Assembly: GCA_902593945.1 (NCBI GenBank) | Contig: CACJKA010000006.1 | Location: 3,471 to 67,470 of the forward strand | DNA length: 64,000 nucleotides | From: an uncultured Candidatus Poseidoniales archaeon | GTDB lineage: Archaea > Thermoplasmatota > Poseidoniia > Poseidoniales > Thalassarchaeaceae | Reading direction: 5' to 3' | Part shown: piece by piece, positions 224-56,628 of the stretch | Position numbering within the stretch: the first letter of the stretch is position 1 | How the letters are laid out: the number at the start of each line of letters is the position of its first letter | The notes under the pieces: generated by a model | Databases searched by the model: none | What the model saw: only the letters and a program-made list of their open reading frames with translations | What the model was told of the DNA's origin: nothing | Made by a program: the position numbers and the translations under genes

Positions 224-2725
224 ATGCGTAGAGTCTCGTCAGCCATTTTGATTGTTCTTCTTCTCTCTCTAGCAAGCCCTTTAGTTTCTGCTGATTCTAA
301 AGGTATCATTGGTTGTACTAGTGCAGATTTAGACATGATGCCAGCGAGTTGGGAGATATCTGATCAGTCTTGTGTGACTATAGATTTCCAGGAAGTATTG
401 TCTCCTGGTACAACATTTTCATTTGAGATAGACTCAGATGAAGATATTGATATTTTACTATTCACAGCAAATGCAAGAACAACTTATCAGAATGAGCAGA
501 ATTACAGAACAGATTTGATTTGGGAAGAAGATTCTGTCTTCGAATCTTTTTCTGGACAGGGTTCTTGGCATTGGACTGTTCCAGATGAAGGGCAATCAAC
601 TCGATGGTACATGGTAATTGATAATTTAGCTCATCCTCAAGATAATGGTCAGGGCGCTCAAGGAGGAAGTGTAGCGAATGTAATAATGAACGTTGAACAG
701 GTTGTGGCTCCTGCTTTTTCTTTGATAGATACGATTGTTCGTTTGGATACAAATGATCACCAAGTTGTAGCTGGTCCTTTCTCTTTAGACCAGGGCAGTC
801 AACTTTCTATTGATGTGACTACAATGGAAGGTGGTCCTGATATATTCTTGATGACAGAGGAACAAAAGAACACCTATGAATCTGCAGTTGCAAATGGTAC
901 AGTTGCAGCATCTAGAATAAATCAAGCAGATTTACTCGCAGTAACTAGTTCTGGTAGCACAGTTTGGTCAGCAGGGCCTCAGTATTCTGGGATTCCTCTA
1001 TACTTAGTTGTGGATAATCGTGCAGGTGCAGGCGGAGCAGGAACAAGCAAAGTGGCAACTACTGTGGTGTCTTACCTCACACCTGTTGTTCAAGTGATTC
1101 TAACCGATCCAGACTCTTTGACCGTTGTTGATGTTGGGGCGACTATGACATTGGATGCCAGCAATACACCAAATCTTTCCAATCAAATATCTAGTATTAA
1201 TTGGGATACAGACGGCGACGGGTTTGATGATTATTCTGGTGAAACTATTGAATTATCTTGGCTAATTCCAACAAATTTCACATTAAAGGTTACAGCAGTA
1301 TCTACCGATTCACGAAGTTCTACCATATTCAAAGACATAGAAGTTAGAGATATCTCAAATCCTTCTGCTAGCATTGATATTAACTCGGATATAACACGCG
1401 GATATGGTGAAAATATTGTCTTGAGTGGCCAATTCTCAGATAACTGGGAGGTTTCAACCGTAGAATGGTTAGTTGATGATTTAGTTATGGAGTCTTATTC
1501 TGGCACCGATCCCTCTGCTACTTCCTTTACTCATGTATTCGACTCATCCTACATATCTGGGCTTCATACAATCACTCTCAGAGTTACAGACAAATCAGGA
1601 TTAGTAACTGATGATGTCGCTAACATAAATTTGTATGACCCCACACCTCCTAAAGTAGACTCCGATTTCGTCACTGAACTGCAAGTTGTAGTCAACCAAG
1701 CTTATCCTTTCTCAGTCCCAGCAACTGATCCTGAATCAACGAATCTAATTTACAAATGGGATTTCAATAGAGATATTGATTCAGATAATGACGGAATAAC
1801 TTCTAATGATAACGAAGGAGTAGGTCCAACAGTAGTTCATCCTTTTTCAGAGCCAGGAATTTTTTGGGTAGTTTGTACTATTCAGAATGATGAGGGATTA
1901 ACTACTGAAGCAGAGATTCTAGTGACAGTTATTTCCGCAGATTCTGGTTCAGATGGAATTGATTGGTTGAATATTATTGTAATTTTAGTTGTAATCTTAG
2001 TTGTAATGGCATTAATTGGTTTGGTAACAGTAAGAGTACTAGAAAATAGAAAAATCGCAGCAATGTTAGCTGAACAAGCGGAACAAGAAGTTGAAGAAAA
2101 TGTGGCACCCCCATCTGTTGACGAGCAGAAAGCAATGTGGGGAGGAGCGGGAATTAATCAAGTGAGTCCGCTCTCTCAAGCAACTGTAGGTAATCAATAC
2201 GGTGGTTATTCTTCAGGAATGTCCGGTTTACCAACTCCGCCGCCGTCCGGTTCCCCTACTTCTCCTGTAGAGATGGATCCTGATTTGTCAGAATTACTCA
2301 GTTCGTCCCCTCCACCAACATCTGCCCCTGTTAATAGTCCTGCTAATGACTTACTTGCAGCATTTGAAGAAGACGATGCAGTTCCTAGAGAAGATATTCA
2401 ACACGATTTTGATTCTTCTGAGAATTCTGAAAATGTTTGGAAACCTTCTGAAGATCCACTAGAAGGCATTTCAGCGCCAGTTTCTGAGGTAGTAGAAGCA
2501 CCTGATTTTGAGCCAGAACCGGAACCAGAACCAGAACCGGAACCTGAATCAGAACCGGAGCCTGAACTAGAACCAGAACCGGAGCCACCTTCACAAAATC
2601 GTACAGTTAGAAATTCATGTTCAAGTTGTGGGAAATTGTTTGAAGTCGATATGCCAGTAGGTGTTGATGTTGCTAGAACATCATGTCCACATTGTGGGTC
2701 AATTGAGACAATACGTTTTGAGTGA
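224..2725 (+). CDS. Secreted, membrane-anchored PKD-domain protein with a cytoplasmic Pro/Glu-rich linker and C-terminal zinc ribbon
   Basis: Signal peptide; PKD-like motifs (LDAS...WDTDGDG, YKWDF, HTITLRVTD); one TM helix (IIVILVVILVVMALIGLV); EP repeats; CSSC...CPHC at the C-terminus. Confidence 0.8.
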   Translation: MRRVSSAILIVLLLSLASPLVSADSKGIIGCTSADLDMMPASWEISDQSCVTIDFQEVLSPGTTFSFEIDSDEDIDILLFTANARTTYQNEQNYRTDLIWEEDSVFESFSGQGSWHWTVPDEGQSTRWYMVIDNLAHPQDNGQGAQGGSVANVIMNVEQVVAPAFSLIDTIVRLDTNDHQVVAGPFSLDQGSQLSIDVTTMEGGPDIFLMTEEQKNTYESAVANGTVAASRINQADLLAVTSSGSTVWSAGPQYSGIPLYLVVDNRAGAGGAGTSKVATTVVSYLTPVVQVILTDPDSLTVVDVGATMTLDASNTPNLSNQISSINWDTDGDGFDDYSGETIELSWLIPTNFTLKVTAVSTDSRSSTIFKDIEVRDISNPSASIDINSDITRGYGENIVLSGQFSDNWEVSTVEWLVDDLVMESYSGTDPSATSFTHVFDSSYISGLHTITLRVTDKSGLVTDDVANINLYDPTPPKVDSDFVTELQVVVNQAYPFSVPATDPESTNLIYKWDFNRDIDSDNDGITSNDNEGVGPTVVHPFSEPGIFWVVCTIQNDEGLTTEAEILVTVISADSGSDGIDWLNIIVILVVILVVMALIGLVTVRVLENRKIAAMLAEQAEQEVEENVAPPSVDEQKAMWGGAGINQVSPLSQATVGNQYGGYSSGMSGLPTPPPSGSPTSPVEMDPDLSELLSSSPPPTSAPVNSPANDLLAAFEEDDAVPREDIQHDFDSSENSENVWKPSEDPLEGISAPVSEVVEAPDFEPEPEPEPEPEPESEPEPELEPEPEPPSQNRTVRNSCSSCGKLFEVDMPVGVDVARTSCPHCGSIETIRFE
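2510..2587 (+). repeat. Degenerate hexamer repeat (GARCCN) encoding a (Glu-Pro)n linker
   Basis: gagccagaaccggaaccagaaccagaaccggaacctgaatcagaaccggagcctgaactagaaccagaaccggagcca. Confidence 0.9.
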
Positions 2726-2730
2726 ATTTT

Positions 2731-3135
2731 ATGAAAAGAAATTGGATTCTTCACATAGGATCAATTATTTTCGGGTTTCCATTTGTACTCATTGGGATAG
2801 ATCACTTTGTAGACCCAGTTTGGTATGAGCCGATAGTCCCCGAAATATTGGGTTATCCTACATTTTGGGTATATGCTAGCGGAGTTTTTGAAATTGTTTT
2901 AGGGGCCGGCTTGATGTTTCCACGTACTCGACAAATTTCTGCATATGGTGTAGCTTTAATGCTGTTAGTTCTTTATTGGGCCAATTTCAACATGTGGATT
3001 AATGATATAGCAATTGGCGGCTCTAAATTCGGCACTAATTGGCATATAATGAGAGCAATAATTCAAGTAATTCTAATTATTATTTGTCTTACGATAGCTA
3101 AATATTCTTCTAAATTATCTCAATCATCAGAATGA
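2731..3135 (+). CDS. DoxX-like membrane protein
   Basis: GIDHF...YEPIVP, SGVFEIVLG and ANFNM motifs with about 4 hydrophobic segments. ATG 2731 preferred over GTG 2722. Confidence 0.75.
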   Translation: MKRNWILHIGSIIFGFPFVLIGIDHFVDPVWYEPIVPEILGYPTFWVYASGVFEIVLGAGLMFPRTRQISAYGVALMLLVLYWANFNMWINDIAIGGSKFGTNWHIMRAIIQVILIIICLTIAKYSSKLSQSSE

Positions 3136-3226
3136 AAGATTGGTTTCAATTGAAACAAGATTAAATCTATTTTTATTGTACTCAAGTAGGGGAATAACCT
3201 TTACCATATCTCTGAGAGGTGAGTCC

Positions 3227-6200
3227 ATGAAAGGCGGTGCTGTACGTATCATACGCAGAGCCCCTGCCATCAATCATTCACAGACAATTCTTCTAGTTCT
3301 GATATTTTTGATGCCGATGTATTCGCCAATTACTAATGTATCTGCAGATACAAGAATCAGCGCTGATGATTTTCAAATTCTTGACGAAATGACGGAAGTA
3401 CTTTCTCAGAGAGAAGATGTAATATCGTCGGAACTGGTTAAAAATATCGCAGGACCTTCTCTTGAAGGGGTTGAAAATTCAGTTACCTCAACAAATCAGG
3501 ATGATCCTCTTTATGGAATTAATGATTTGTTTTCAGATTCTTCCATTGTAGATACAACACCTCCTGAAGTCATTCATCCGGGACCATATGATCTTCTAAT
3601 AAATCCTGAAAATTCACCCCCTGGTGCCGTGAATACAGTCTGGCAAACAATTTTCAATCTGACAGATTATTTGATTTGGACAAAGTATACTGATTTAGAC
3701 GGTAATCAAGTCGAAAAGTTCGAAGTAGTTACTTTTACTGCTTCATTGTTTTCTTTACTTGATCCTGAGACCGAATCATTCCTTCATGCGATTGATGTCG
3801 ATAATGACGGAAATAATGATATCCAAGTAGGTCTAAAGATAGCTTTTGATTTAGGCGATGAATTGGGTATTGAAGGAGATACTCTTTGGATAAAACCTAC
3901 AATTTCTTTCGAAGTAGTTGTATTAGAATCTAGTGAAGGAGATGCCGTTTGGGATGAGTTACAAAATCTTCAAGTTTCACTATTGAAAGCATTTGCTTAT
4001 TCTGAAGGTATTCTAACAGGTGGAGAAAGTTATGTTTGGGTCATCGACTCAGCCTTTACTACCCCGCCAATTGACTTTTCTTTGGATGTTGGTATAGAAA
4101 GATTATTTTTTGATATTTCAGATGCCGCATCAAGTTTGGTGTCTAGTCTTCTTGCATTCGTTAGTTTAGGAATACCTTTACCTGGTGTGGATGAGTCAGA
4201 TATTGTTCTTTCATCGCTTTCTTCTCCATATGCAATTCTCATAAATAATAATGGACAAACAAATTGTCCAGATAGATATTCCCAAATTGAATTATCTACT
4301 TTACCTTCCACTGAGATTTCTTGTGGAGTTGTAGCAGGGTTTGGGTATGTCCATTTTTCTCCTCAAGATAGTAATGGTGATAGAGAGGTCTGGGAAGTTG
4401 CTTATATCGAAGCCACTATACATCCAAACGGTGTTTCTACAAGATTACCTTCTGAAGTGAATCTAGTCATCAGAACTGATACAACATTGGCTGAGGGTGG
4501 CGGTGGAGCAGGTGAAAATGCTCTAGATACAATCGAATACTATGCAGATAGAAGATCAGATTTACACATTCACTTCCATGAGAATAAAGCCGGACAACCA
4601 ACTGCTAACTCCGACGATCCAAGTGGAAATTCCACAGATACAATTGGTTGGCTAAGAGGTATGCCTGCCGGAAGCCTCTCCTCTGATGAGATTGATCGTG
4701 TTTTCACAATGTTGGGCTCTAAATCTTCTCCTGAATTACCAGGTGGTCAACCTGAAAAATTAGGTATGATCATTGCAATCAAGAATTTCTCTAGAGATAC
4801 AACACAAAATGTCGATGACCCTACTCTACCGATTAATCCTGCTTATCCTCCTAAGACCTTAGTGCTAATTAGATCTGTTCAAAGTATCCAATCAATAGAA
4901 TATGATTCATGGCATAAAAGAGGAGATATTGCTACAGATCATAGTAAACTCAGTCTCGAATTGAGAGATTTGCCAACATCAATCGCTATTTTTGGTTCAT
5001 TCGAACTGGGAAGTACTGAATCATCAGATACAAGCCTTGATACTGGCGCTAATTTAGATTTCATGTCCAAGATTTTAGATTCAGTGATTCTTAACTTGGT
5101 TAATTTATTCTTAGATGTCGGCGATATAATCAATTCAGTACCAGGTGAAGCAATTTCAGTACTTACTGGCGATGCTGGTGCTGGAGGAATAAATTCATTC
5201 GCAGGTAGAGAGGTAAATCTATTGATGACTGATAATCTATTATCAAGTAGAGAGAGTATGGAAATCAGTGTACTTTCTTTCCAAATCGGATCAAGTCCTC
5301 ACCCAATTGCTCAAGATGATCATATCATAATTTCTAAAGATAGAGATTTGAATCAGGTTGTTGGAGAATTTGGAGTCAGAGAACCTATTGTTCCAGTTGC
5401 TTCAAGTATTAGATTTAGTGGATTATCCGAATTTACATTCAGTGATGACAATCTTACTAATATTCAATCAGTAGGGATAAAAACTAATTCCGATGAATCA
5501 TTCAGATTTTCGTTTATTGAACATGATAGAAGTTCTCTCGAGAATTTTTCATTCCAGAGCCTATATCTCTCAGACATACCAAATAATATTTCTATTGAAT
5601 TGGATGAAGAATCTTTGAGCTATATCGCTAATGAAGGAATAGAATTGATCTCTTATGTTGGTTTAGATGGTGAACAGAGACAGGCTGCAAATATTCATGA
5701 TATGCCTGCAGAATTCATGTTTGAATTCGGAGAACAGACCAGTTTTATTGCAGAAACTCCAATTTCTACTGTAGAAGTTCAAATTAGTAATTCTTCTGAT
5801 CCCGTTACTATGACTGGTGATCATTTCTTATTCCATCATGATTCTAATAATGAGACCTCTACTATATCCACTAGATTGACAGGAATACAGGAATTAGGCT
5901 GGATACCACCTATTGAGGAAGGTTCTCTAGGATCATCGGGCCGAGGAACAGCATTCCTAAAATCTGCAGGAGATAGGCCAATGAGTATCAATGTAGATAA
6001 CGCTCCTACTGTCGATTCTTCTGGGTTGTCAGCATTAGCTTTAATTGAACCATTACCATCTTATCTTACGGTTGAAGTTCCAACTGGTGAATCTTCCAAT
6101 TCTGATTTGGTCTTACCAGACTTCAATTCAACTCAGGGGCTTTCAGGAGTTGCCTTTTTCATTGGTGGATTTTCCGATTTCGGCAGGTCAATTAATTCTG

Positions 6201-7624
6201 TATTAGCAGGTTTAACTAGCGATATCTCAACAGGCACAGACGAAGTCGATGAATCTTTTTCATATGCCTTACAATTAGAATCAGATTCTGCATTTGATCT
6301 TACTCTAGAAGCAACATATGGAAAAGACGTGACTTCTGAGCCTCCATGGGTGCATGGAATCTCTTTCCAGTCCGCACCTGAGGGATTATCGAATGGATTC
6401 CATATCAAAACATGGTTACCTGGTTTGCCACCACAAATTGATATGACAATTGCTAGAGATACTCTATCCAATGGTGAAGATTGGTATATACAAGTTTCAA
6501 TGGATGGATGGAAACCTGCTCGAGAAGAATTTATGATTCATGCATATGGTGTGAATGGTCAAGATTTGTTAATGACAATGCAGGGACTAAGTCCTGGAGA
6601 ATCTACTAGCTTGTACATTGATTCAATTTTTGAAATCAGAGACACCGGAGGAATTACGGTAGTTTCAACTGGGACACAATTTGGTATATCTGAAAGATTA
6701 GATTGGGTGCATATGATTTTGATTAATCGAGAGTCCCAGAGTCGAACGGAGATGTTGATTAATGAGATTCCTAAATCTATTTCTTTACAGGCAAGTCTTG
6801 GAACTGCGATTTCTATTGATATGAGTGTCCCCGAACAAGAAAGAATTGAAGGATTTGCTGTAGGTTCTTTGATGTTGCAACAGATGCAATGGATGGATGG
6901 ATTTTGGTGGCCAGCAACTGTATTCTTGAAAGACATACCAGGTTATATTAATTTGACAACTGCTCCAGAATTGAATTTTGATATAACCAAGAATCTTGCT
7001 TTCCAAGGTTTACCTAATCTTGATTTCACTTCTTCAGATGAAGGAATGTCATTGTATATTGAAGCATTTGGTAGAGCAATAAATTCTCGTGGAGATATTA
7101 TTCTCCTAGCAGAAGGGATGACCGATAAGATGGTCATAAAACCAACAAATGATTTTGGTTTAGAGATACGTTCTGGAGGAAGTGGAGTAGAAAAAATATA
7201 TGTTAGAGTTAACGATGTTCCTACGGGAACTAGTCAAGTAGGTACTCCACCAGTTTATCTTGAAGAAATGGAAGCCATGGGGGAAAATCTTCGTAGTGCT
7301 ACTTTGCATATTAGGGAATTAGTTGGCCCTTACAGTGTAATTGAAGTTGATGATGTAGATGGCGGAAAAATAATTGTTTCAGCTAAAGTAAGTACCGAGT
7401 TTGCAGGTCAAGAAATACAAGTCAGAGGCGTTCTAATCGATGCCCAAACTACTGGAGGAGTCCCTACAGGTACTACTCTTGGAGTCAATGGTTTATCTTC
7501 GGATCTTTCAATATTGAATTTAGTGCCTGGTTTGGGGGGTTCAACACATCACTTGTTAGTTCCAGAACCATTTACTTCTGCAATACTAACTGTTGTTGCC
7601 ACATTATCTAATGGAGGTGACTAG
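3227..7624 (+). CDS. Very large secreted/membrane-anchored hypothetical protein with internal beta-rich repeats
   Basis: Long ORF with an N-terminal hydrophobic segment and a Ca-binding-like DVDNDGNND. ATG 3227 follows GAGGTGA. Confidence 0.8.
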   Translation: MKGGAVRIIRRAPAINHSQTILLVLIFLMPMYSPITNVSADTRISADDFQILDEMTEVLSQREDVISSELVKNIAGPSLEGVENSVTSTNQDDPLYGINDLFSDSSIVDTTPPEVIHPGPYDLLINPENSPPGAVNTVWQTIFNLTDYLIWTKYTDLDGNQVEKFEVVTFTASLFSLLDPETESFLHAIDVDNDGNNDIQVGLKIAFDLGDELGIEGDTLWIKPTISFEVVVLESSEGDAVWDELQNLQVSLLKAFAYSEGILTGGESYVWVIDSAFTTPPIDFSLDVGIERLFFDISDAASSLVSSLLAFVSLGIPLPGVDESDIVLSSLSSPYAILINNNGQTNCPDRYSQIELSTLPSTEISCGVVAGFGYVHFSPQDSNGDREVWEVAYIEATIHPNGVSTRLPSEVNLVIRTDTTLAEGGGGAGENALDTIEYYADRRSDLHIHFHENKAGQPTANSDDPSGNSTDTIGWLRGMPAGSLSSDEIDRVFTMLGSKSSPELPGGQPEKLGMIIAIKNFSRDTTQNVDDPTLPINPAYPPKTLVLIRSVQSIQSIEYDSWHKRGDIATDHSKLSLELRDLPTSIAIFGSFELGSTESSDTSLDTGANLDFMSKILDSVILNLVNLFLDVGDIINSVPGEAISVLTGDAGAGGINSFAGREVNLLMTDNLLSSRESMEISVLSFQIGSSPHPIAQDDHIIISKDRDLNQVVGEFGVREPIVPVASSIRFSGLSEFTFSDDNLTNIQSVGIKTNSDESFRFSFIEHDRSSLENFSFQSLYLSDIPNNISIELDEESLSYIANEGIELISYVGLDGEQRQAANIHDMPAEFMFEFGEQTSFIAETPISTVEVQISNSSDPVTMTGDHFLFHHDSNNETSTISTRLTGIQELGWIPPIEEGSLGSSGRGTAFLKSAGDRPMSINVDNAPTVDSSGLSALALIEPLPSYLTVEVPTGESSNSDLVLPDFNSTQGLSGVAFFIGGFSDFGRSINSVLAGLTSDISTGTDEVDESFSYALQLESDSAFDLTLEATYGKDVTSEPPWVHGISFQSAPEGLSNGFHIKTWLPGLPPQIDMTIARDTLSNGEDWYIQVSMDGWKPAREEFMIHAYGVNGQDLLMTMQGLSPGESTSLYIDSIFEIRDTGGITVVSTGTQFGISERLDWVHMILINRESQSRTEMLINEIPKSISLQASLGTAISIDMSVPEQERIEGFAVGSLMLQQMQWMDGFWWPATVFLKDIPGYINLTTAPELNFDITKNLAFQGLPNLDFTSSDEGMSLYIEAFGRAINSRGDIILLAEGMTDKMVIKPTNDFGLEIRSGGSGVEKIYVRVNDVPTGTSQVGTPPVYLEEMEAMGENLRSATLHIRELVGPYSVIEVDDVDGGKIIVSAKVSTEFAGQEIQVRGVLIDAQTTGGVPTGTTLGVNGLSSDLSILNLVPGLGGSTHHLLVPEPFTSAILTVVATLSNGGD

Positions 7625-8185
7625 ATGGGATTACTCGAGAAGTCTAAAAATCAGAATATAGAAGAAACTCTTGAAGAGGAATATGCTCACGATGTTTTGG
7701 TTAAATTAGAAGACACAATGAGTCACATCTCACCGATGAGAGTGATAATTGTTTCTGTAGTTGCTTTGATGATTATTTCTTCGACAATTATTGCTGTGAC
7801 ATGGATAGTCCCTTACGATAAGGTTACAGTGGATGTAGTTTACATCCAAAGCAGTGCAGGTCATGTGATTCTAACTGAGGTTGATAATGATGGAAGTAGA
7901 GCCATATCTGATATAATTTTGATAATTCGATTCATCAATTCAGATAATATTGAGATTGATAGAACTTCTTTCAATAAATCATCTCTACCTGCCCATAGTT
8001 CAGTTTCTGGAGATAGTCTAGAATTAATTGTAATTGGGCCATCCGTTTGGGAAAATTATACTATCGATATTGATTTAGAATATACAAAGAATAACAATGA
8101 TAATTCTAAGATTGAATTAGAGTATGTTGTAGGTGAATGGAAAATGGAACAATTTAGTCATGGCACTGGTATTGACTTTTTCTAA
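7625..8185 (+). CDS. Hypothetical single-pass membrane protein with Ig-like domain
   Basis: Starts immediately after the upstream stop, with GGAGGTGA SD; one TM helix, then a beta-rich domain. Confidence 0.7.
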   Translation: MGLLEKSKNQNIEETLEEEYAHDVLVKLEDTMSHISPMRVIIVSVVALMIISSTIIAVTWIVPYDKVTVDVVYIQSSAGHVILTEVDNDGSRAISDIILIIRFINSDNIEIDRTSFNKSSLPAHSSVSGDSLELIVIGPSVWENYTIDIDLEYTKNNNDNSKIELEYVVGEWKMEQFSHGTGIDFF

Positions 8186-8266
8186 CTCTGTTAGAATCCA
8201 ATGTATGAATCCTTTAGGGTTCAACTAACCCATATACTCAAAACCATCTTTAGTAGAGGGAACTTC

Positions 8267-11200
8267 ATGACCAAGCGTACTGTATGCTTAATTTTAGGGC
8301 TCTTCCTCCTTTCATACATACCTGCTACTGATTTCTTTGAAGAACCAGAAGAATCATTTGGAGCAAATATGGATGATAAAATAGAACGAGTAGAAATCTC
8401 TCCCAATCCAAATAGCATTACAGATCTAGGAGCTCCAGTAATCGCAGATAGTTTTGAATTGGTACGTTCTGAGAATGCGGATTCTAGTATTGGAGTGTTT
8501 ACTCATTCAGGACTTATACCTAGCGTATATTTTTCTGAAGATATTGCAACAACTAGAGCAGACCTTGCTTTAGTCATAGTAGACGGAAATACTGGTTTAT
8601 GGGACGCTAGAATGGAATTAATGGAAATAAATGGACTAGAAATCCGTTCTACTATTCCTCCATCTGGGTACTTAGTCCAAGGCTCCGAAGAACAATTAAA
8701 TGAATTAAAGAATATTCGATCTGTTGAATCTATTCACAATGTGCCAGCAGGCCTAATGGTTCATTCATCTCTTTATGATGCTCCTGCAGATCAAAGTCTA
8801 GTTGTTGAAATCACAGGATGGAAGAATTCAGATCTAGTGCGTCAATTAGATGTATTAGGCGACAATCTCCAAGATGTTGCAGATTTATGGCTGACAGAAC
8901 CTTGGTCACCTGATTCAGGAATTTTTTGGGGCGAAATACAAACAAATGACATTCCAAAAATCATCAAGCATCCATCTGTATCATACATTGCTCCAGTCCC
9001 TGTGCTTGAATTAATGAATAATGAAGCCAGAGACCACATGGGAATCGATACTGTAGAAGATTTCTTCATTACTGGTTTGAATGGTTCGGGGCAAAAGATA
9101 GCTGTTGGGGACTCAGGTTTAGATGATGACCATGGCGACTTTACAGGTAGGGTTGCTGGTCTAGATTCTGTTACTCCGGGGGACTCTTCCACTGCTGACC
9201 TTTCTGATGGACATGGAACACATGTGGCATGCACAGTACTTGGTTCTGGAATGAGAAGCAACGGGAATTACCAAGGAATCGCCCCTGAAGCAGATCTTTA
9301 TTTCCAAGCAATGGAAGATGATGATACTGGAGCATTGTATTCAATCGGCATTAACAGTATGTTGAATGAAGCTTACAATGCAGGGGCTCGCCTTCATACT
9401 AACAGTTGGGGTTCCCCAACTGGTGGAGATTATACGACATCATCTGAAGATGCTGATGATCGCGTATCAACTTGGGATCAATATTGGCAATATCAAGGAA
9501 TGACCGTATTATTTGCGGCTGGAAATGAAAGAAATGACGGCATCTCTTCTCCAGGGACTGCAAAAAATGTGATTACAATAGGTGGTCATGTAAATAGATA
9601 CAACGGTGCTCCTGACGATATGTATTACTGGAGTAGTAGAGGCCCTACTGACGATGGTCGAATTAAACCTGATCTTGTAGCTCCAGGAGATTATGTCCGC
9701 TCTTGCAAGTCTCAAGAAGCAAGTAGTGCTTCAGGATCTTGGAGTAATAATTGGTATCTCGAATATAGCGGTACTTCAATGGCTACTCCAGCAGCAGCAG
9801 GAGCTGCGGTATTAGTTAGAGAATATTTGATGGAAGTGGCTTCAAGGCCTGCTCCACAAGCTGCTTTGATTAAGGCATTACTAATTCTTGGTGCAGAAGA
9901 CATGGGTGCCAGAAACATTCCCAATAATGACGAAGGCTGGGGGCGAGTAAATCTTGTGAATACTTTAGTTCCAGATAGTGATGTAGGAATTTTCGTCGAT
10001 GACCGATCTAGATTATCTTCCGGCCAAATTAGTGATTATTCGTTTGAAATTACAAGAGCAGGGGAGCCTCTGAAAGTAGTACTTGCTTGGTCTGATTATC
10101 CTGGCTCATCTTCATCTTCAACTCAATTAAGAAATGATTTAGATTTAGAAATCACCAATCCGAATGGCCTCATTTACAAAGGTAATGTTTTCACTAATGG
10201 TCAATCTGTAACTAATGGGCAAAAAGATTCCAAAAACAATGTTGAAGTAGTACTTGTAGATAATGCAATGGTCGGTACGTGGAGCGTTAGGGTGAAAGAC
10301 GCATCTCACGGAGGAAGTAGTTTCTATCAGTCATATTCTCTTGCTGTTAGGGGAGTTAATGTCAATGATTTAGACCCCGACCCAACTTTCGTACAAGATT
10401 CATTTGATTTATCGGTTCCAATACCTCAGATAGATGAAGAAGTCGAATTTTCAGTTTCACTAATCAATCAAGGAGCTGGGAGTATACCCGAACTTTCAGT
10501 CTTAGCTGCAGTTAATAGTGTAACAATTAGTACGAAAACCATCAGTCTTTCCCCAGGAGAATATGCAGAATTAACTTGGAATTGGACCCCTAATCAAGAT
10601 GGTGAAAATATTATTTCATTTTACATTGATCCAAATGATGAAGTCGAAGAAGTATCAGAATCTAATAATCAGCTTTTCGAAACTGTAATTGTTAGCGTTC
10701 CCGGAGTTAGAGTAACTAGCGATAATCCTACAATGCTTATTGAAGGTACAACTGATAGTTCAACAACTTGGTCTCTTGAATTGACAAATACGGCACTTTT
10801 TGAAACGAATGCTAGCATTGTAGTTTCAGAACCTGTAAGAATGCAAGATGGTATAGAGTTTGATTGGTTCTCATCATTCTCAAATAATACTTTCAATTTA
10901 ATGCCGGCTGAGTCAACATCAGTTGATTTGTCAGTAATTCATCCTGCTCCACCAGAACCTGGACTTTATCGTATGATTGTAACAGGAACTGATACTGAGA
11001 ATCAGGTACAATCTGAATTTGAGTTATATCTAGAAGTGCCACTTCTTTCTAGTCCTGATATCCTACTTCCTCCAGGCCAGGTTAAGGTAAACCCTCTAGT
11101 CTCAACACCATTGCAGATAGAAGTTAAGAATGAAGGAAATGGCCCTCAGACCTACGATGTTGAATTAATTTCTCCATCGGGGTGGAGTCTAGGTTTAGAT

Positions 11201-12733
11201 TCAATAGGATCTTTTGCAGGTTCATCTCATGGCTCAACAGGTTCTTTGGACAAAGGAGAAACTAGAGTTATTGATGTTACAATAAATCCACCGGGTGCAA
11301 TGATTCCTGCAGGAACTTTGTTTTCAGGGTCAATTTCTATACATTCTAGAGTTAGTTCAGAATCTTGGTTTGAAGACATAACCATGGTGGTTGAGAATGT
11401 AGATGTCGTTACTTTAACTCCAACCTCTGATGGATTAGAGCCCGAGGTTTCTGCAGATGATACATTAGAATGGGATGTTAATTTTAATAACCAAGGAAAT
11501 CGAGATCTAGAATTAACCCCGTATGTTCTTTCTACACCAAATGGATGGTCGTTAACAGGTACTCAGAGCTCATTCACTGTATTGTCTGGTGAGCAGTTTA
11601 TATTGCCTCTATCACTCAATGGCAACGGTCTTGCTAAGAGTGGTGAATTAAAGATTCGATTTGTCACAGATGACGGGTTTACAGTTGACTGGAATAGAAC
11701 AATAGATGTTATCTCTGGAGCGATCCCTAACATTGACTTTTTCCAAGTTGCCTTACCTGATGGAACTTCTGCGAGTACTCCATTAGGTGTAGATGCCCAT
11801 CCTGTAGGGGGGATTGGATTTGACCTACTATGGAAGGTTTCTAATTCTGGAACAATGACTTGGAGGCCTAGCGTTTCAATGGATTTACCTGATGAGGAAT
11901 GGCAATATTCGTGTTCTAGCGACCCAACCATAATGGTCGATTCTACAGTCACAGTAATTTGTAATGTAATCATTCCCTTATCTGCAGAAGCAGGTTCTGA
12001 ACCATCAATTTCACTGATATTAGACGGCGGGGGAATCGTATCGCAAGATACAATTTCTCTTTATGTTGAAACAATTTCTAAAGTGAGTTGGACCATTACT
12101 CAACAATTTGATTCTCCTCAAGGTTTCAATAATGAATTACATTTGGAACTGCAGAATGTAGGTAATTCTGATATTTCAGAGATATTAGAGATAACCGCCC
12201 CTTCCGGTTGGAATGAACTAATTTTAGATAGTCAATGGGTAAATTTAAGGCCCGGAGAAACTAGATCTGTGGAAATAGGATATAATCCTACAAAAAGTTC
12301 GGATGGAGTCATCACTGTCTCTCTTTCTAATTCAGATGTAATTGAAAATTCAAAAATAGAAGTCGAGATTGATGTACTATCTAACGGGAGTTCTGAAGAT
12401 ATCAATTTGACAAATATTCTTTTGATAATTCTAATTATGATTCTATTAGCTGGAGGTTTGGGTTTAGCTATGTTCTTGCGTAGAGGAGGAGAGATTCAAT
12501 CTTTAATTCCTGAGAAAGTAGTTGAAAATTTGACTCCAAAGGAAGACGAAGAAGTTTCGAGTGGAGTTCCTTGTTGGATTTGTAGTGTTGATATTACCAT
12601 AGGCAAGGCTTGGGCCTGTTTAGAATGCGGTGCAAGGTATCATATGGATGGACAGGTACAGGGTTGCAGTATCATTGAAAGAGGAAATTGTTTGCATTGT
12701 GATGCAGAGATAGATCAACTCACAGAAGTATGA
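8267..12733 (+). CDS. Membrane-anchored S8 (subtilisin-like) serine protease with CARDB/Ig-like repeats and C-terminal C4HC3 zinc finger
   Basis: Catalytic motifs AVGDSG, HGTHVA, FAAGNE, SGTSMATP; CARDB motif (IDPNDEVEEVSESNN); TM helix near the C-terminus; Cys-rich tail. ATG 8267 gives a signal peptide. Confidence 0.92.
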   Translation: MTKRTVCLILGLFLLSYIPATDFFEEPEESFGANMDDKIERVEISPNPNSITDLGAPVIADSFELVRSENADSSIGVFTHSGLIPSVYFSEDIATTRADLALVIVDGNTGLWDARMELMEINGLEIRSTIPPSGYLVQGSEEQLNELKNIRSVESIHNVPAGLMVHSSLYDAPADQSLVVEITGWKNSDLVRQLDVLGDNLQDVADLWLTEPWSPDSGIFWGEIQTNDIPKIIKHPSVSYIAPVPVLELMNNEARDHMGIDTVEDFFITGLNGSGQKIAVGDSGLDDDHGDFTGRVAGLDSVTPGDSSTADLSDGHGTHVACTVLGSGMRSNGNYQGIAPEADLYFQAMEDDDTGALYSIGINSMLNEAYNAGARLHTNSWGSPTGGDYTTSSEDADDRVSTWDQYWQYQGMTVLFAAGNERNDGISSPGTAKNVITIGGHVNRYNGAPDDMYYWSSRGPTDDGRIKPDLVAPGDYVRSCKSQEASSASGSWSNNWYLEYSGTSMATPAAAGAAVLVREYLMEVASRPAPQAALIKALLILGAEDMGARNIPNNDEGWGRVNLVNTLVPDSDVGIFVDDRSRLSSGQISDYSFEITRAGEPLKVVLAWSDYPGSSSSSTQLRNDLDLEITNPNGLIYKGNVFTNGQSVTNGQKDSKNNVEVVLVDNAMVGTWSVRVKDASHGGSSFYQSYSLAVRGVNVNDLDPDPTFVQDSFDLSVPIPQIDEEVEFSVSLINQGAGSIPELSVLAAVNSVTISTKTISLSPGEYAELTWNWTPNQDGENIISFYIDPNDEVEEVSESNNQLFETVIVSVPGVRVTSDNPTMLIEGTTDSSTTWSLELTNTALFETNASIVVSEPVRMQDGIEFDWFSSFSNNTFNLMPAESTSVDLSVIHPAPPEPGLYRMIVTGTDTENQVQSEFELYLEVPLLSSPDILLPPGQVKVNPLVSTPLQIEVKNEGNGPQTYDVELISPSGWSLGLDSIGSFAGSSHGSTGSLDKGETRVIDVTINPPGAMIPAGTLFSGSISIHSRVSSESWFEDITMVVENVDVVTLTPTSDGLEPEVSADDTLEWDVNFNNQGNRDLELTPYVLSTPNGWSLTGTQSSFTVLSGEQFILPLSLNGNGLAKSGELKIRFVTDDGFTVDWNRTIDVISGAIPNIDFFQVALPDGTSASTPLGVDAHPVGGIGFDLLWKVSNSGTMTWRPSVSMDLPDEEWQYSCSSDPTIMVDSTVTVICNVIIPLSAEAGSEPSISLILDGGGIVSQDTISLYVETISKVSWTITQQFDSPQGFNNELHLELQNVGNSDISEILEITAPSGWNELILDSQWVNLRPGETRSVEIGYNPTKSSDGVITVSLSNSDVIENSKIEVEIDVLSNGSSEDINLTNILLIILIMILLAGGLGLAMFLRRGGEIQSLIPEKVVENLTPKEDEEVSSGVPCWICSVDITIGKAWACLECGARYHMDGQVQGCSIIERGNCLHCDAEIDQLTEV

Positions 12734-12798
12734 GAATAGCATATTTTAGTACACGACAAACACGAAGCCCTTAGAGGGAAGATTACTCCGGGTCAATC

Positions 12799-15468
12799 AT
12801 GAAGAGAGCCGATACAACTCGCTTGGTTCTAATTTTATTGTTACTTTCTTTGATCCCTCCTGCTGTATCTGCGGCTGTAGATGTATCAATTTCAGCATCT
12901 CCTACGTCTCAAGAAGCGGACTCCGATAATCCTGCTGAATATGACATAACAGTGACAAATACAGGTGATGACGACATTACTGTAACTCTTACCACATCCC
13001 AAGCTGCTGATTGTAATGGTTTTACTTCAAACGTAGAACAAGTTAGTGGAACAATCGAATCAGGTTCTAGCGAAACAGTCCTCCTTACAGTATCTGTGAA
13101 TGAACAGGCTAGTGGTGAATGTGAAACTACAGTTACAGTATCTGCAACAGGAGCAACTCCTGGTCAACCAAAAACCGATGACGTAAAAGTCACTACTACT
13201 GCGGGAGATGGAGGGCTATATTCCGTAACTTTGACTGTTGATGATCAGACAGTAACTTATGATGGCGAAGAGGATGAAGTAGTTTGGGAAGTTGATGTAG
13301 AGAATACTGGTGAACAGCAAGAAAATATACAACTTGAAATGAGCTCTGATAATGATTGTGAATCTGATGAACTAGACGCAACCGTCAACCCGACTACTGT
13401 TCAGTTAGACTCTGGAGACTCAACAACAGTTGATGTTACAGTAGATTTGCCTGATGGCTCATCAACAGAAGCTGGAATCCATTGTTTCATAATTAAGGCT
13501 ACAGTAACAAATGACCCTAATGCTGCAGATCCTGCTGAAGACAATTTAACTTTAACAGTAAATATCCCTGAAGTAAAGGAATGTGACCCCTCATTACAAT
13601 TCACATCCATGAGTTTGAATCCTGGTGAAACAGGAAATAATAGATTTACCGTTGAGAATATTGGAAACACAGAGTGGACAGTTACAGCAAAAGCAGTAGC
13701 AGATAATTTTGATGTCTCGGATTGGGTTGATTTTTCACCACCTTCGAATGCATTACTCGGTGAGAAAAATACTGCAGATGACAGACATACATTTGAGTTC
13801 CAAGTAACACCTGATGATTCAGTGGAAGCAAGTACCCAAGTCCCAATAAAAATACAAGGTAGATCAGGTACTGATGTCGGTTGTGAGAAGATAATGACAT
13901 TAAATGTTGGGCAATCATATGATGCTTCGGCATCTTTGAGTAAATCCTCTCTTTCCAATGTTGAACCGGGTACTTCAAAATCTGTGACTATGACAATCAC
14001 TAATGAGGGCAATGGCGTTGATACAATCCAAGTTAATGCAGCAAATGTTCCTTCTGGTTGGCAAGTTTCATTTTCACAATCATCTGTTACGCTTGCAAGT
14101 GGGAATCAAGGTAGTTTGACTATTGATGTCGCTGTACCTGAAGGTGCTGATGCAGGTTCAGATAGCATTACCTTCAATGTAGGTCATGGAGGAGGCTCTA
14201 CGCCTTATGACTCGAAAACTCTAACGGTTTCTGTAGCCCAAGTTCATGATTTGAGCACCTCTATTATTTCAGACTCCCAGAAAGGTAAATCAGAGCAGAT
14301 TATTAGTTTCCCGATTGAGATTACAAATACTGGAAATGTGAATGATAATTTCAAGTTACAAGCCTGTGATCCAAATGACGTAACGGGTTGTAATGATCCT
14401 CTATGGGAATCATCTTTTTCCAATTCTCAAGGTTCCACAATTACTCAAATAAACATTGAATCCGGAGCAACAAAGACGGTTTATTTGGATGTTACAATTG
14501 AGGGAGAAGAGAATGGGGACAGGGCATCAGTTTCTGCAGTCATAACTATCTTTGGAACGGACAAGTCTTCATCTCATGAGTTCACAATTTCAGTTTCAAA
14601 CTTTAATTATGGTATGAGTATAACACCGGTTAGTCCCGGAGAAATTCCTGATGAATTACAAGTCCAGCTTCCGCCCGGCGGAATAGGCTCTGTTTCTTTT
14701 TGGGTTGAAAATATTGGCGACTTCCCTAATGGTGATAATGCTGTGATTACAGTTACTGGAATGGAATCTACCGTTCTGCGTACTTTGAAGGTAAGTGGCG
14801 TAACTACAGATGAATCATTCCATGTTGATGTAGGACCTGAGAATCGTGTAATGGTGACGCTTGATTTCGAGGTTTTAGAGGGAGTCCAAAGTGGGGCTTC
14901 TGGAATGATTAAGGTTTCAGCATCTTCAGAACTTAATGCTATAGAAAGTACACATGTAGATCTATTAGTTGATGTCATCACTATACATGATCTCAGGTTC
15001 ACTATCGAAGAAGAAACTTCCAAGACTGTTACGTACCCTGAGAAGGCAATTTTCACAATTTTTGTTACTAACCATGGCAATATTGAAGAAACTGTTGTTA
15101 TTGAATCTTCAGAAGCACTGAGATTCTGGTCTGTCAATGCAGTTGAAGATGAATTCAAATTGGCTCCTGGTGAAACAAGAGAAGTAGAAGTTCGAGTAAC
15201 TCCTCCTAATGATTTAATCCAAGATGATACTTATGATTTTACAATTATTGTAATGCCAAAAGGACTTCCGGTGGCGGGGCAACCTCTAGACCTATCTGTT
15301 ACTGCTGAGATTTCTATTGGGATATCTTTCCTCTCTGACGACATGGTCCAGATTCTAGGCTGGGGAGGTATCTTAATCGGCGGACTGCTCGTCATTATTC
15401 TTTTCCTCAGGTCTAGGAAAGAGAGCCAAAGAATAATGAAAGCTCTTGAACTTGAATCCGAACGTTAA
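12799..15468 (+). CDS. Secreted COG1470/NEW3-like repeat surface protein with C-terminal TM anchor
   Basis: Signal peptide; about 7 Ig-like repeats marked by (V/I)xNxG(N/D/E); PSGWQVS motif; C-terminal TM followed by a basic tail. Confidence 0.8.
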   Translation: MKRADTTRLVLILLLLSLIPPAVSAAVDVSISASPTSQEADSDNPAEYDITVTNTGDDDITVTLTTSQAADCNGFTSNVEQVSGTIESGSSETVLLTVSVNEQASGECETTVTVSATGATPGQPKTDDVKVTTTAGDGGLYSVTLTVDDQTVTYDGEEDEVVWEVDVENTGEQQENIQLEMSSDNDCESDELDATVNPTTVQLDSGDSTTVDVTVDLPDGSSTEAGIHCFIIKATVTNDPNAADPAEDNLTLTVNIPEVKECDPSLQFTSMSLNPGETGNNRFTVENIGNTEWTVTAKAVADNFDVSDWVDFSPPSNALLGEKNTADDRHTFEFQVTPDDSVEASTQVPIKIQGRSGTDVGCEKIMTLNVGQSYDASASLSKSSLSNVEPGTSKSVTMTITNEGNGVDTIQVNAANVPSGWQVSFSQSSVTLASGNQGSLTIDVAVPEGADAGSDSITFNVGHGGGSTPYDSKTLTVSVAQVHDLSTSIISDSQKGKSEQIISFPIEITNTGNVNDNFKLQACDPNDVTGCNDPLWESSFSNSQGSTITQINIESGATKTVYLDVTIEGEENGDRASVSAVITIFGTDKSSSHEFTISVSNFNYGMSITPVSPGEIPDELQVQLPPGGIGSVSFWVENIGDFPNGDNAVITVTGMESTVLRTLKVSGVTTDESFHVDVGPENRVMVTLDFEVLEGVQSGASGMIKVSASSELNAIESTHVDLLVDVITIHDLRFTIEEETSKTVTYPEKAIFTIFVTNHGNIEETVVIESSEALRFWSVNAVEDEFKLAPGETREVEVRVTPPNDLIQDDTYDFTIIVMPKGLPVAGQPLDLSVTAEISIGISFLSDDMVQILGWGGILIGGLLVIILFLRSRKESQRIMKALELESER

Positions 15469-15497
15469 CTACTAAGTTGAGGCCCACTGTTAGGTTA

Positions 15498-15548
15498 CAC
15501 TTATTGCCCTATTTTTAGTGGGCCATACTAACGGTCCCGAAGGGACCG
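15498..15548 (+). promoter_or_regulatory. Putative nuo operon promoter motif CACTTATTGCCCT plus 5' hairpin CGGTCCC-GAA-GGGACCG
   Basis: The 13-mer is identical to one upstream of the sdh operon; perfect 7-bp stem at 15532-15548. Confidence 0.6.
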
Positions 15549-15552
15549 GGTT

Positions 15553-16014
15553 GTGAGCCCTATGACATCCGTCTCCGAAGCCTATCTTGCACTAGCAGTA
15601 ATGACTTTGGTTGGTATCGGTTTTCCAGTAGGAAGTTTCGTAGCTTCAAGACTTTTGAGGCCTGTTGTTGATCCAAATAATCCAACAAAAACTCGTTCCT
15701 GGTTACTTCCTGGTTATGAGGTAGATCAATCATTATATGTTCGTCGTGAGAGTACCTATGAGTGTGGTTCTGCACCAGTTGGTGAGGCACACATTAATTT
15801 CCACTTTCAATACTACTGGTATGCAATTATATTCTTAGTATTCGATATAGCTTTTATGTTTCTAGCATTTGGTGGAATAATATCCATACAAGATGTTGAC
15901 GTTACATCTAGGGCTGAGATTATGGGTGCTTTGACTACAATGTCAATCTTCATTTTACTTATGGGCCTAGGGGTTTGGCACGTATTCAGGAAAAGAGGAA
16001 GAATATACATTTGA
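15553..16014 (+). CDS. nuoA: NADH-quinone oxidoreductase-like subunit A
   Basis: STYECG and QYYWYAIIFLVFD motifs; 3 TM helices. Confidence 0.95.
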   Translation: MSPMTSVSEAYLALAVMTLVGIGFPVGSFVASRLLRPVVDPNNPTKTRSWLLPGYEVDQSLYVRRESTYECGSAPVGEAHINFHFQYYWYAIIFLVFDIAFMFLAFGGIISIQDVDVTSRAEIMGALTTMSIFILLMGLGVWHVFRKRGRIYI

Positions 16015-55775: not shown

Positions 55776-56576
55776 TCACATTATAATCCAATAGTGGTCT
55801 TGAATTCTGCCTTCTGAGACGGCCAAAACAAACAAATCTCCAAGAAAAACCATAACTAAACTAGTCCAAAACCAGAAGGCATGTTCAATATTTAAGTTAC
55901 TAACTTTGATGTATAATTTCCCCATTATTCCTGAGATTCCACCTCTCCATCGATTCATCCCTCCACCAAATAGATGTCTGAATGCGTGACAAGAAGCAAC
56001 ATACATGAATAGAAGAATAGATTCAGTAGCTAAAACCACGGTTCCTAAAGATATTCCAAATTCAGTTCCATCGTTAAACCACATTGTATGATATACATCG
56101 TAAACTTTCATTGAAAGAATAATTATTGCTAGATATAACATATATCTGTGAATATTATTTAACACAAATAGTCCGGTTTCTCCTTTGTACCCTATTCTGT
56201 AATTCACTTCAGGTTTTGCAACTACACATGCTGTAGGATTTTGGAAAAAGACTCTATGGTAGACTTTTCGCATGTAGTAACATGTCCCTCTAAATCCAAA
56301 TGGTATCCATAAAATCAGCATAGCTGAATTCATCCAATTAGGTGCTTTTATACCGAACAAATGTATTACATCGGGTGAAAAAATTGGTGAAGTCACCCTG
56401 TGATTGTCGTAGTGAATTGCTCCATCCCAAATCAAAACCCGTAATGCAGTATAGATCAAAGCCAGAGTTAATCCAAACCCCATCCAAAATGGCTTAGTCC
56501 ACCATCTGTCGATTCTATCTGTTTTCCCAAACCCCTTTTTCAGGGGTAGTTTAATCGCATCAGACAAAGAACTCAC
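55776..56576 (-). CDS. Succinate dehydrogenase membrane anchor, mycobacterial Sdh1 (Rv0249c-like) type
   Basis: FRGTCYYMRKVYHR, NIHRY, SCHAFRH and HAFWFW motifs; several TMs; first gene of the sdh operon. Confidence 0.85.
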   Translation of the reverse strand: MSSLSDAIKLPLKKGFGKTDRIDRWWTKPFWMGFGLTLALIYTALRVLIWDGAIHYDNHRVTSPIFSPDVIHLFGIKAPNWMNSAMLILWIPFGFRGTCYYMRKVYHRVFFQNPTACVVAKPEVNYRIGYKGETGLFVLNNIHRYMLYLAIIILSMKVYDVYHTMWFNDGTEFGISLGTVVLATESILLFMYVASCHAFRHLFGGGMNRWRGGISGIMGKLYIKVSNLNIEHAFWFWTSLVMVFLGDLFVLAVSEGRIQDHYWIIM

Positions 56577-56580
56577 CTAA

Positions 56581-56628
56581 TGGTGCAAGCACCAGTAATA
56601 CTCCCGACTCAAGTAAGGGCAATAAGTG
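56581..56628 (-). promoter_or_regulatory. Putative sdh promoter motif CACTTATTGCCCT plus 5' hairpin TGGTG-CTTG-CACCA
   Basis: + strand agggcaataagtg at 56616-56628 and tggtgcaagcacca at 56581-56594. Confidence 0.6.

Follow-up and report, generated by a model that had tools for sequence, protein, structure and literature searches.

Upstream architecture of the nuo and sdh operons in an uncultured Poseidoniales archaeon: a putative TATA-variant promoter followed by a leader stem-loop

The operons for complex I (nuo) and succinate dehydrogenase (sdh) of an uncultured Candidatus Poseidoniales archaeon share one upstream architecture, and both of its parts are known kinds of element. Judging from the sequence, the arrangement is probably best explained by two ordinary elements placed in equal order, first a promoter with a variant TATA box and then a 5' leader stem-loop that would act in the RNA, and the reading of the shared sequence as the mark of a regulon is unlikely. 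Since these archaea are uncultured, their expression signals can be read from sequence only.

The window, by which we mean the whole stretch of 64,000 nucleotides that was analysed, is part of contig C6 of an assembly with 1,208,757 bases in 35 contigs, 65% complete and with 38% G+C; genes for an Hjc resolvase and for an archaeal 16S rRNA are also present in the assembly. For comparison we used 40 genomes of the same order, of which 17 belong to the same genus, the others coming from 7 further genera of the family and from two further families (g1 and g7 below are genus labels and f3 is a family label).

A sequence of 13 bases, CACTTATTGCCCT, occurs with zero mismatches at 15498-15510 (+), upstream of nuoA, and at 56628-56616 (-), upstream of the membrane gene of the sdh operon. 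On both strands of the whole assembly these two copies, at nuo and sdh only, are the sole exact ones, and the next-best sites genome-wide are two with one mismatch, neither in a comparable context. At both operons the distance from the motif to a hairpin is 21 nt and that from the hairpin end to an in-frame GTG (15553; 56576) is 4 nt; the motif positions, hairpins and spacings described in the sequence-only reading all proved correct on recheck. Downstream of the first copy the gene order is nuoA (PF00507), nuoB, nuoC, and the membrane gene ahead of sdhA and sdhB encodes a protein of 263-266 aa, for which (55776-56567, -) searches of Pfam and NCBIfam returned no family. Two types of this membrane gene exist among relatives, with an identity of only ~40-45%, the second type being found in three genus members and several other genera. 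On the nuo side, a block of giant surface-protein genes with Ig-like domains (224-15468, +; 833, 1494, 1510 and 889 aa) ends directly before the promoter. The features are collected in Table 1.

Table 1. Features of the two upstream regions, given in window positions; promoter elements and transcription starts are predictions.
Feature	Position	Strand	Basis
BRE-side bases of the nuo promoter (TTAGGTTACA region)	15491..15499	+	register with 25 tRNA promoters; conserved in 14/14 close genus members
Putative nuo TATA box, variant CTTATTGC, inside the 13-mer	15500..15507	+	CTTAT in 40/40 nuo leaders; CTTAT[TG] peak before leaderless ATGs
Predicted nuo transcription start, most likely A15530	15529..15531	+	29-30 nt from first TATA base (leaderless and tRNA calibration)
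nuo leader hairpin CGGTCCC-GAA-GGGACCG	15532..15548	+	at least 6 bp in 35/40 orthologues, 17 distinct stems
Putative nuo Shine-Dalgarno core GTGA, includes the GTG first taken as start	15553..15556	+	16S 3' end; Shine-Dalgarno register
nuoA coding sequence, ATG start (revised, likely)	15562..16014	+	Pfam PF00507, NCBIfam NuoA; ATG kept in relatives
Second copy of the 13-mer; putative sdh TATA box CTTATTGC at 56626-56619	56616..56628	-	GCAATCACTTAT kept in sdh promoters of the genus; CTCAAAG at the same distance in f3
Predicted sdh transcription start, A56596	56596..56597	-	calibration as for nuo
sdh leader hairpin TGGTG-CTTG-CACCA, 5 bp here, 6-7 bp in close relatives	56581..56594	-	fold and relatives
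Putative sdh Shine-Dalgarno AGGTGA, includes the GTG first taken as start	56573..56578	-	16S 3' end; Shine-Dalgarno register
Membrane gene before sdhA and sdhB, TTG start (revised, likely)	55776..56567	-	ATG at the TTG position in relatives

The shared sequence as a probable core promoter

Taken with its surroundings, the 13-mer is probably the core promoter, with CTTAT(T/G) as a TATA-box variant and the other bases as its flanks. From 1004 selected open reading frames we took the ATG codons at the 5' ends and counted hexamer positions before them. TATA-like hexamers peaked at 29-30 nt before the ATG (TT[CG]AAA 19+10, TTTA[TA]A 9+2 and CTTAT[TG] 6+4), the background of CTTAT[TG] being ~1.4 per position elsewhere; the ten leaderless genes with CTTAT[TG] at this distance have unrelated functions. 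A plain search for 6-mer enrichment in upstream regions gave no oriented signal. Altogether 148 of the 1004 frames carry a TATA-like hexamer 28-31 nt before the ATG and form a leaderless class with a sharp peak at 29-30 nt, from which transcription is predicted to start 29-30 nt after the first TATA base.

The tRNA genes offer a second register. Alignment of 25 tRNA upstream regions gave the consensus tCCGTT..a-TT[C/G]AAAt, in which the first TATA base lies 32 nt before the mature tRNA, and the promoter of tRNA-Glu has ATTATGT in register with CTTATTG. The nuo sequence TAGGTTACA-CTTATTG fits the same register, with GGTT on its BRE side matching the CCGTT of the tRNA promoters. The earlier proposal that TTATT is the TATA element is thus borne out by three observations, namely the peak at 29-30 nt before ATG, the register of the tRNA promoters and the fixed distance to the start codon in relatives.

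Among these relatives, CTTAT stands at the equivalent place in 40 of the 40 orthologous nuo leaders. In the 37 leaders with a stem of at least 5 bp, which were those used for TATA distances, the first TATA base lies 62 nt before the start codon in 29 and 28-33 nt before the 5' base of the hairpin throughout, the latter distance being 32 nt in 22. For sdh, the distance from the TATA box to the start is 58-59 nt in 19 of 24 leaders, GCAATCACTTAT is kept in the promoters across the genus, and CTCAAAG occupies the TATA position in family f3, again 58-59 nt before the start. The cox operon, whose first gene is the COX2 gene, has the promoter CACTTATG in this genome and its closest relatives only; in other genus members TTTAAC or GTTAAG replaces CTTATG with the position unchanged. 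Such swaps at an orthologous TATA position indicate that CTTAT(T/G) is one interchangeable TATA variant. In the cox operon (contig C5:45806-46599) we also observed a BRE-like CCGCGA and a TATA box 40 nt before the ATG, an arrangement conserved in the genus; with the box at that distance, the leader would be only ~10 nt long and without a Shine-Dalgarno sequence.

The genome-wide mapped BRE/TATA core promoters of archaea (Thermococcus, Methanolobus) have the same make-up as the element described here, with an A/T-rich stretch of 7-8 bp at a fixed distance and a short conserved element before it, and in the present genome one element type serves leaderless, leadered and tRNA genes. The nuo and sdh box differs from the archaeal core promoter in being a less A/T-rich CTTAT(T/G), whereas TT(C/G)AAAT dominates the tRNA promoters of this genome. 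In what the dRNA-seq study of Methanolobus says of its promoters, BRE/TATA elements lie ~19-22 nt from the transcription start in 81.6% of primary transcripts (PMC5378194). Our full-text literature search on promoters of Marine Group II / Poseidoniales found no relevant paper. Compared with the leaderless TATA promoters of the same genome, the TATA-to-start geometry is equal, with the difference that nuo and sdh insert ~30 nt, consisting of the hairpin and the Shine-Dalgarno sequence, before the start codon.

Assembled contigs of four RNA runs cover the nuo genes, and one contig from an RNA library, belonging to a relative, spans the nuo promoter uninterrupted (15278-15560), a pattern that may be due to transcription running on from the gene upstream or to DNA contaminating the library. 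We further noted, at 15481-15525 (+), an inverted repeat of 9 bp, GGCCCACTG ... TAGTGGGCC, that surrounds the nuo TATA box together with a T5 run and folds at -18.2 kcal/mol (z -3.0). Neither a role as regulator site nor one in terminating the gene upstream was retained for this repeat, since it is reduced to 4-6 bp or absent in relatives; it could be part of the 3' end of the surface-protein gene that precedes nuo.

Start codons and leader hairpins

The translation starts of both operons probably call for revision. The sequence-only reading had nuoA and the sdh anchor gene begin at GTG codons, and both of these GTGs turn out to lie inside a Shine-Dalgarno core GTGA, at a place where relatives often lack a start codon. 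The 3' end of the 16S rRNA is GGATCACCTCCT, and at 147 unambiguous ATG starts of this genome GTGA ends 4 nt upstream in 22 cases and GGTG ends 5 nt upstream in 21; in the two operons GTGA ends 5 nt before ATG 15562 and TTG 56567. The codon aligned to the GTG is often a non-start codon in relatives (GTT, GGC or GGG in nuo; AGC in sdh), an ATG is retained at the downstream start position, and the sdh relatives have ATG in place of TTG 56567 with no in-frame start upstream. On these grounds of sequence, the start of nuoA is likely ATG 15562 and that of the sdh membrane gene likely TTG 56567.

For the hairpins, the best hairpin in the 42 nt before each start codon was compared with 200 shuffles per leader. 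Of the 40 nuo leaders, 35 form a stem of 6 bp or more and 31 are equalled by at most 5% of their shuffles; 17 distinct stems occur. The corresponding values are 18, 14 and 19 for the 39 sdh leaders, and 0, 0 and 5 for the 29 cox2 leaders that served as control (one cox2 locus was left out on account of masked bases). Conservation of the hairpin therefore holds for nuo (35/40) and only in part for sdh (18/39 at 6 bp or more), the other 21 sdh leaders having a stem shorter than 6 bp. In 36 of 40 genomes the last base of the nuo 3' arm lies 11-15 nt from the start codon. Examples of the nuo stems are CGGTCCC/GGGACCG, CGGTACC/GGTACCG, GGAACCC/GGGTTCC, GAGAGCG/CGCTCTC and TTGCGGAGC/GCTTTGCAA.

Pairs were counted on stems anchored at the loop; a MAFFT alignment of the 37 distinct nuo leaders put groups out of register and was for that reason not used for this purpose. 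With 17 distinct rows, 108 of 119 cells (91%) pair in nuo against 61.8 +/- 5.5 (52%) when 3' arms are swapped between genomes, and 0 of 2000 shuffles reach the observed value; for sdh, restricted to stems of 5 bp or more (a filter that dropped 15 rows), the figures are 104 of 108 cells and 52.6 +/- 5.9. Such pairing percentages are to some extent a product of the method, since each leader entered the count with its best hairpin. Independent support for conservation of the hairpin comes from the shuffles, the cox control and the fixed position. Moreover, the stem is longer on the sense strand than on the antisense strand, by way of G·U pairs, in 8 distinct nuo stems against 2 with the opposite bias (10 equal) and in 10 sdh stems against 4 (18 equal), a bias that points to RNA rather than to a DNA palindrome. 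The covariation that had been put forward as a check was accordingly found in nuo, where compensatory changes across the 17 distinct stems go together with the sense-strand G·U bias.

The two hairpins are of unequal strength in this genome. The predicted fold of the nuo leader has -15.8 kcal/mol with z -2.48 (RNAfold) and that of the sdh leader -6.2 kcal/mol with z -0.56 (RNAfold). With its 5 bp, the sdh hairpin is matched by 17% of shuffled leaders and is credible only because relatives carry a version of 6-7 bp at the equivalent place; in the three genus members without an sdh hairpin the leader is exactly 10 nt shorter. Within the sdh leader (56565-56596, -), we observed that the 5' arm UGGUG mimics the Shine-Dalgarno sequence and that the RNAfold minimum pairs the 3' arm CACC with the Shine-Dalgarno GGUG. 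By the calibrated geometry, the stems would begin 2-3 nt after the predicted transcription start, which would be in line with the earlier suggestion that the hairpins sit at the extreme 5' end of the mRNA.

Taken together, the nuo leader hairpin joins, with good support, the class of conserved 5' UTR stem-loops. It has conserved 5' UTR structure in common with the cis-regulatory leaders of Rfam and matches no Rfam family, none being found at gathering scores in the window and none at E up to 1 in 15440-15620. Bacteria are known to carry stabilising stem-loops at mRNA 5' ends, as in ompA of E. coli and the aprE leader of B. subtilis. The present leaders are like these in having a stem-loop few bases from the (here predicted) 5' end, a ribosome-binding site next and a well-expressed gene; they are unlike them in belonging to another domain of life with other decay enzymes, and in that the 5' end is a predicted one.

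Possible roles of the stem-loop and of the box

On the preferred reading, the core promoter would consist of the CTTAT(T/G) TATA box, here CTTATTGC, flanked by two bases (CA) on the BRE side and by three of the spacer. The box would be bound by TBP and TFB, and transcription would begin 29-30 nt after its first base, at about A15530 for nuo and A56596 for sdh. In each of the resulting leaders of ~30 nt, 1-2 unpaired bases would be followed by the stem-loop, then by GTGA or AGGTGA as Shine-Dalgarno core and, after a spacer of 5 nt, by the start codon. The stem-loop would work in the RNA, on the sense strand, where it may shield the mRNA 5' end from 5'-end-dependent decay and may hold the ribosome-binding site downstream of it unpaired, in a defined setting. 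Its role would most likely lie in protecting the mRNA 5' end or in setting up translation, the second being an equally simple one and the first suggested by analogy.

As for the enzymes against which such protection would be directed, a search for the RMMBL domain found no beta-CASP ribonuclease gene in this 65%-complete assembly, whereas one or two are present in 40 of the 40 relatives, so that the missing gene is probably a gap of the assembly. The short (~440-aa) beta-CASP paralogue of the relatives looks like CPSF73 and not like RNase J. One published study describes aRNase J as conserved in Euryarchaeota (PMC7144898).

A control of translation by the hairpin, instead of stabilisation, would set the accessibility of the Shine-Dalgarno sequence, for example through alternative pairing or temperature. 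We regard this as unlikely, while acknowledging that the end of the hairpin invariably lies 10-15 nt from the start codon, just in front of the Shine-Dalgarno sequence, that the sdh 3' arm CACC can pair with it (GGUG) in place of the 5' arm UGGUG in the RNAfold minimum of this genome, and that the Methanolobus study, in what it says of one 5' UTR stem-loop, proposes a masking of the ribosome-binding site (PMC5378194). However, the Shine-Dalgarno sequence lies outside the stem in nuo and in the 6-7 bp versions of sdh, and a second small hairpin in nuo is not conserved in relatives.

The sequence-only reading had gone further and seen in the shared flanks a respiratory regulon, either with a promoter class of its own or with a regulator site. 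In this form, the extended motif (CACTTATTG, perhaps with GCCCT) would mark an aerobic energy regulon beyond the basal promoter, via a dedicated regulator or one TFB paralogue, and we hold this to be distinctly improbable. Several facts speak for it. Every genus member examined retains CACTTAT in nuo and sdh, a divergent subgroup with a different anchor gene among them, and it thus persists across the whole genus while the TATA box of cox drifts; a plain basal promoter gives no explanation for this retention, which counts against the preferred reading. Genus g7 also keeps CACTTAT, and there the nuo and sdh promoters are both CACTTATGT. CACTTATG stands before cox in this genome and in its closest relatives, 3 of the 6-7 promoter-like CACTTAT sites precede respiratory complexes, and two TFB genes are present.

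Other facts speak against it. Across the genus only 9 of the 13 bases, that is CACTTATTG, are conserved in both the nuo and the sdh promoters, and the last four bases vary in the sdh orthologues (CCCT, CCCA, CCAT, GTCT, GTAT, GTGT and others), so that conservation of the whole motif in orthologous promoters was not borne out. Outside g1 and g7 the two operons diverge and carry different TATA variants, and the cox motif is lost within the genus. Genome-wide, CACTTATTG has 14 sites, 4 of them between genes, and CACTTAT stands at a promoter-like distance before nuo, sdh, cox2, a polyprenyl synthase operon and the genes for ribosomal protein L10e and a D12 methylase, and perhaps one more. The scan for the motif before other respiratory operons, which the earlier reading had called for, gave CACTTATG at cox and failed at atp, where a different box, no hairpin and a 14-nt leader with AGGTG were found; the cox test is, besides, a post hoc one and accounts for 1 of 5 further sites. 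A search for rhodopsin (PF01036) matched neither this genome nor the control genomes and so carries no weight. The genome yielded a single TBP gene, and the BRE regions of nuo and sdh are unlike (TAGGTTA vs AGCAAT), TFB being the reader of the BRE. With an atp operon that lacks the motif, a respiratory regulon is not supported; with CACTTAT before unrelated genes, one TBP and unlike BRE sides in addition, neither is a dedicated respiratory class, although within this genus it keeps some probability, the motif being readable as a TATA box that is unstable in cox.

To see how general the leader design is, one may turn to the 779 GC-rich hairpins of at least 6 bp on both strands of the genome, where they are rare. 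Only five genes have one that ends 8-17 nt before the predicted start (sdh falls below the filter), namely those for pyruvate dehydrogenase E1 and nuoA together with C9 11284, C10 15179 and C15 8061, and with only five such genes the design is not a general property of the mRNAs of this genome. The E1 leader (contig C5:1078-1105) has a hairpin of 8 bp, TCTGCCCC/GGGGCAGA, 8 nt before the ATG, and an ordinary TTGAAGA box with 33 nt to the hairpin and 61 nt to the start; all 13 genus members with the gene keep the hairpin, and among the full set of 28 orthologues 15 do so. Hairpins after TATA-like boxes, with less regular spacing, also precede the genes for a PKD-domain protein, gyrase B, an S8 peptidase and an XPD-type helicase. 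It is conceivable, albeit doubtful, that complex I, succinate dehydrogenase and pyruvate dehydrogenase E1 form a small aerobic-energy transcript class of Marine Group II with a common leader design (TATA box, ~32 nt, 5'-terminal hairpin, Shine-Dalgarno sequence and a start ~60 nt from the TATA box), coupled to CACTTAT in nuo and sdh. If true, it would amount to a lineage-specific control of respiration, both transcriptional and post-transcriptional, in a group that ranks among the most abundant archaea of the surface ocean.

Two further explanations fare worse. Archaeal repressors are commonly positioned on palindromes that lie at the start site, and the position of the inverted repeat is fixed relative to the TATA box, as a DNA operator bound by a dimeric repressor on the transcription start might have it; this is very improbable, however, since a protein site would conserve sequence and not complementarity, while nuo has 17 stem sequences with pairing kept, and the sense strand tolerates G·T positions much more frequently than A·C ones. 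Finally, a mere coincidence between two unrelated upstream regions is scarcely credible: 13-mers are shared by 51 pairs among 576 upstream regions vs 24.2 in composition shuffles, and by 11 pairs vs 2.9 within 5 nt of equal distance from the start, so that such position-matched sharing is not rare genome-wide (the chance for one named pair is ~2.9 in 165,600), and the GCCCT extension in sdh is confined to few close relatives, but many genomes retain, at orthologous positions, the 9-base core as well as the spacing and the hairpin, by which the coincidence is largely refuted.

Significance

The preferred reading, of an ordinary TATA-variant promoter followed by a leader stem-loop, reveals no new kind of system. 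What is gained is a calibrated promoter geometry, a Shine-Dalgarno register and two corrected start codons, together with a complex I leader hairpin that persists across the whole order despite turnover of its sequence. These can be put to use in better gene calling and in the interpretation of metatranscriptomes, and they provide a concrete element for heterologous archaeal hosts.
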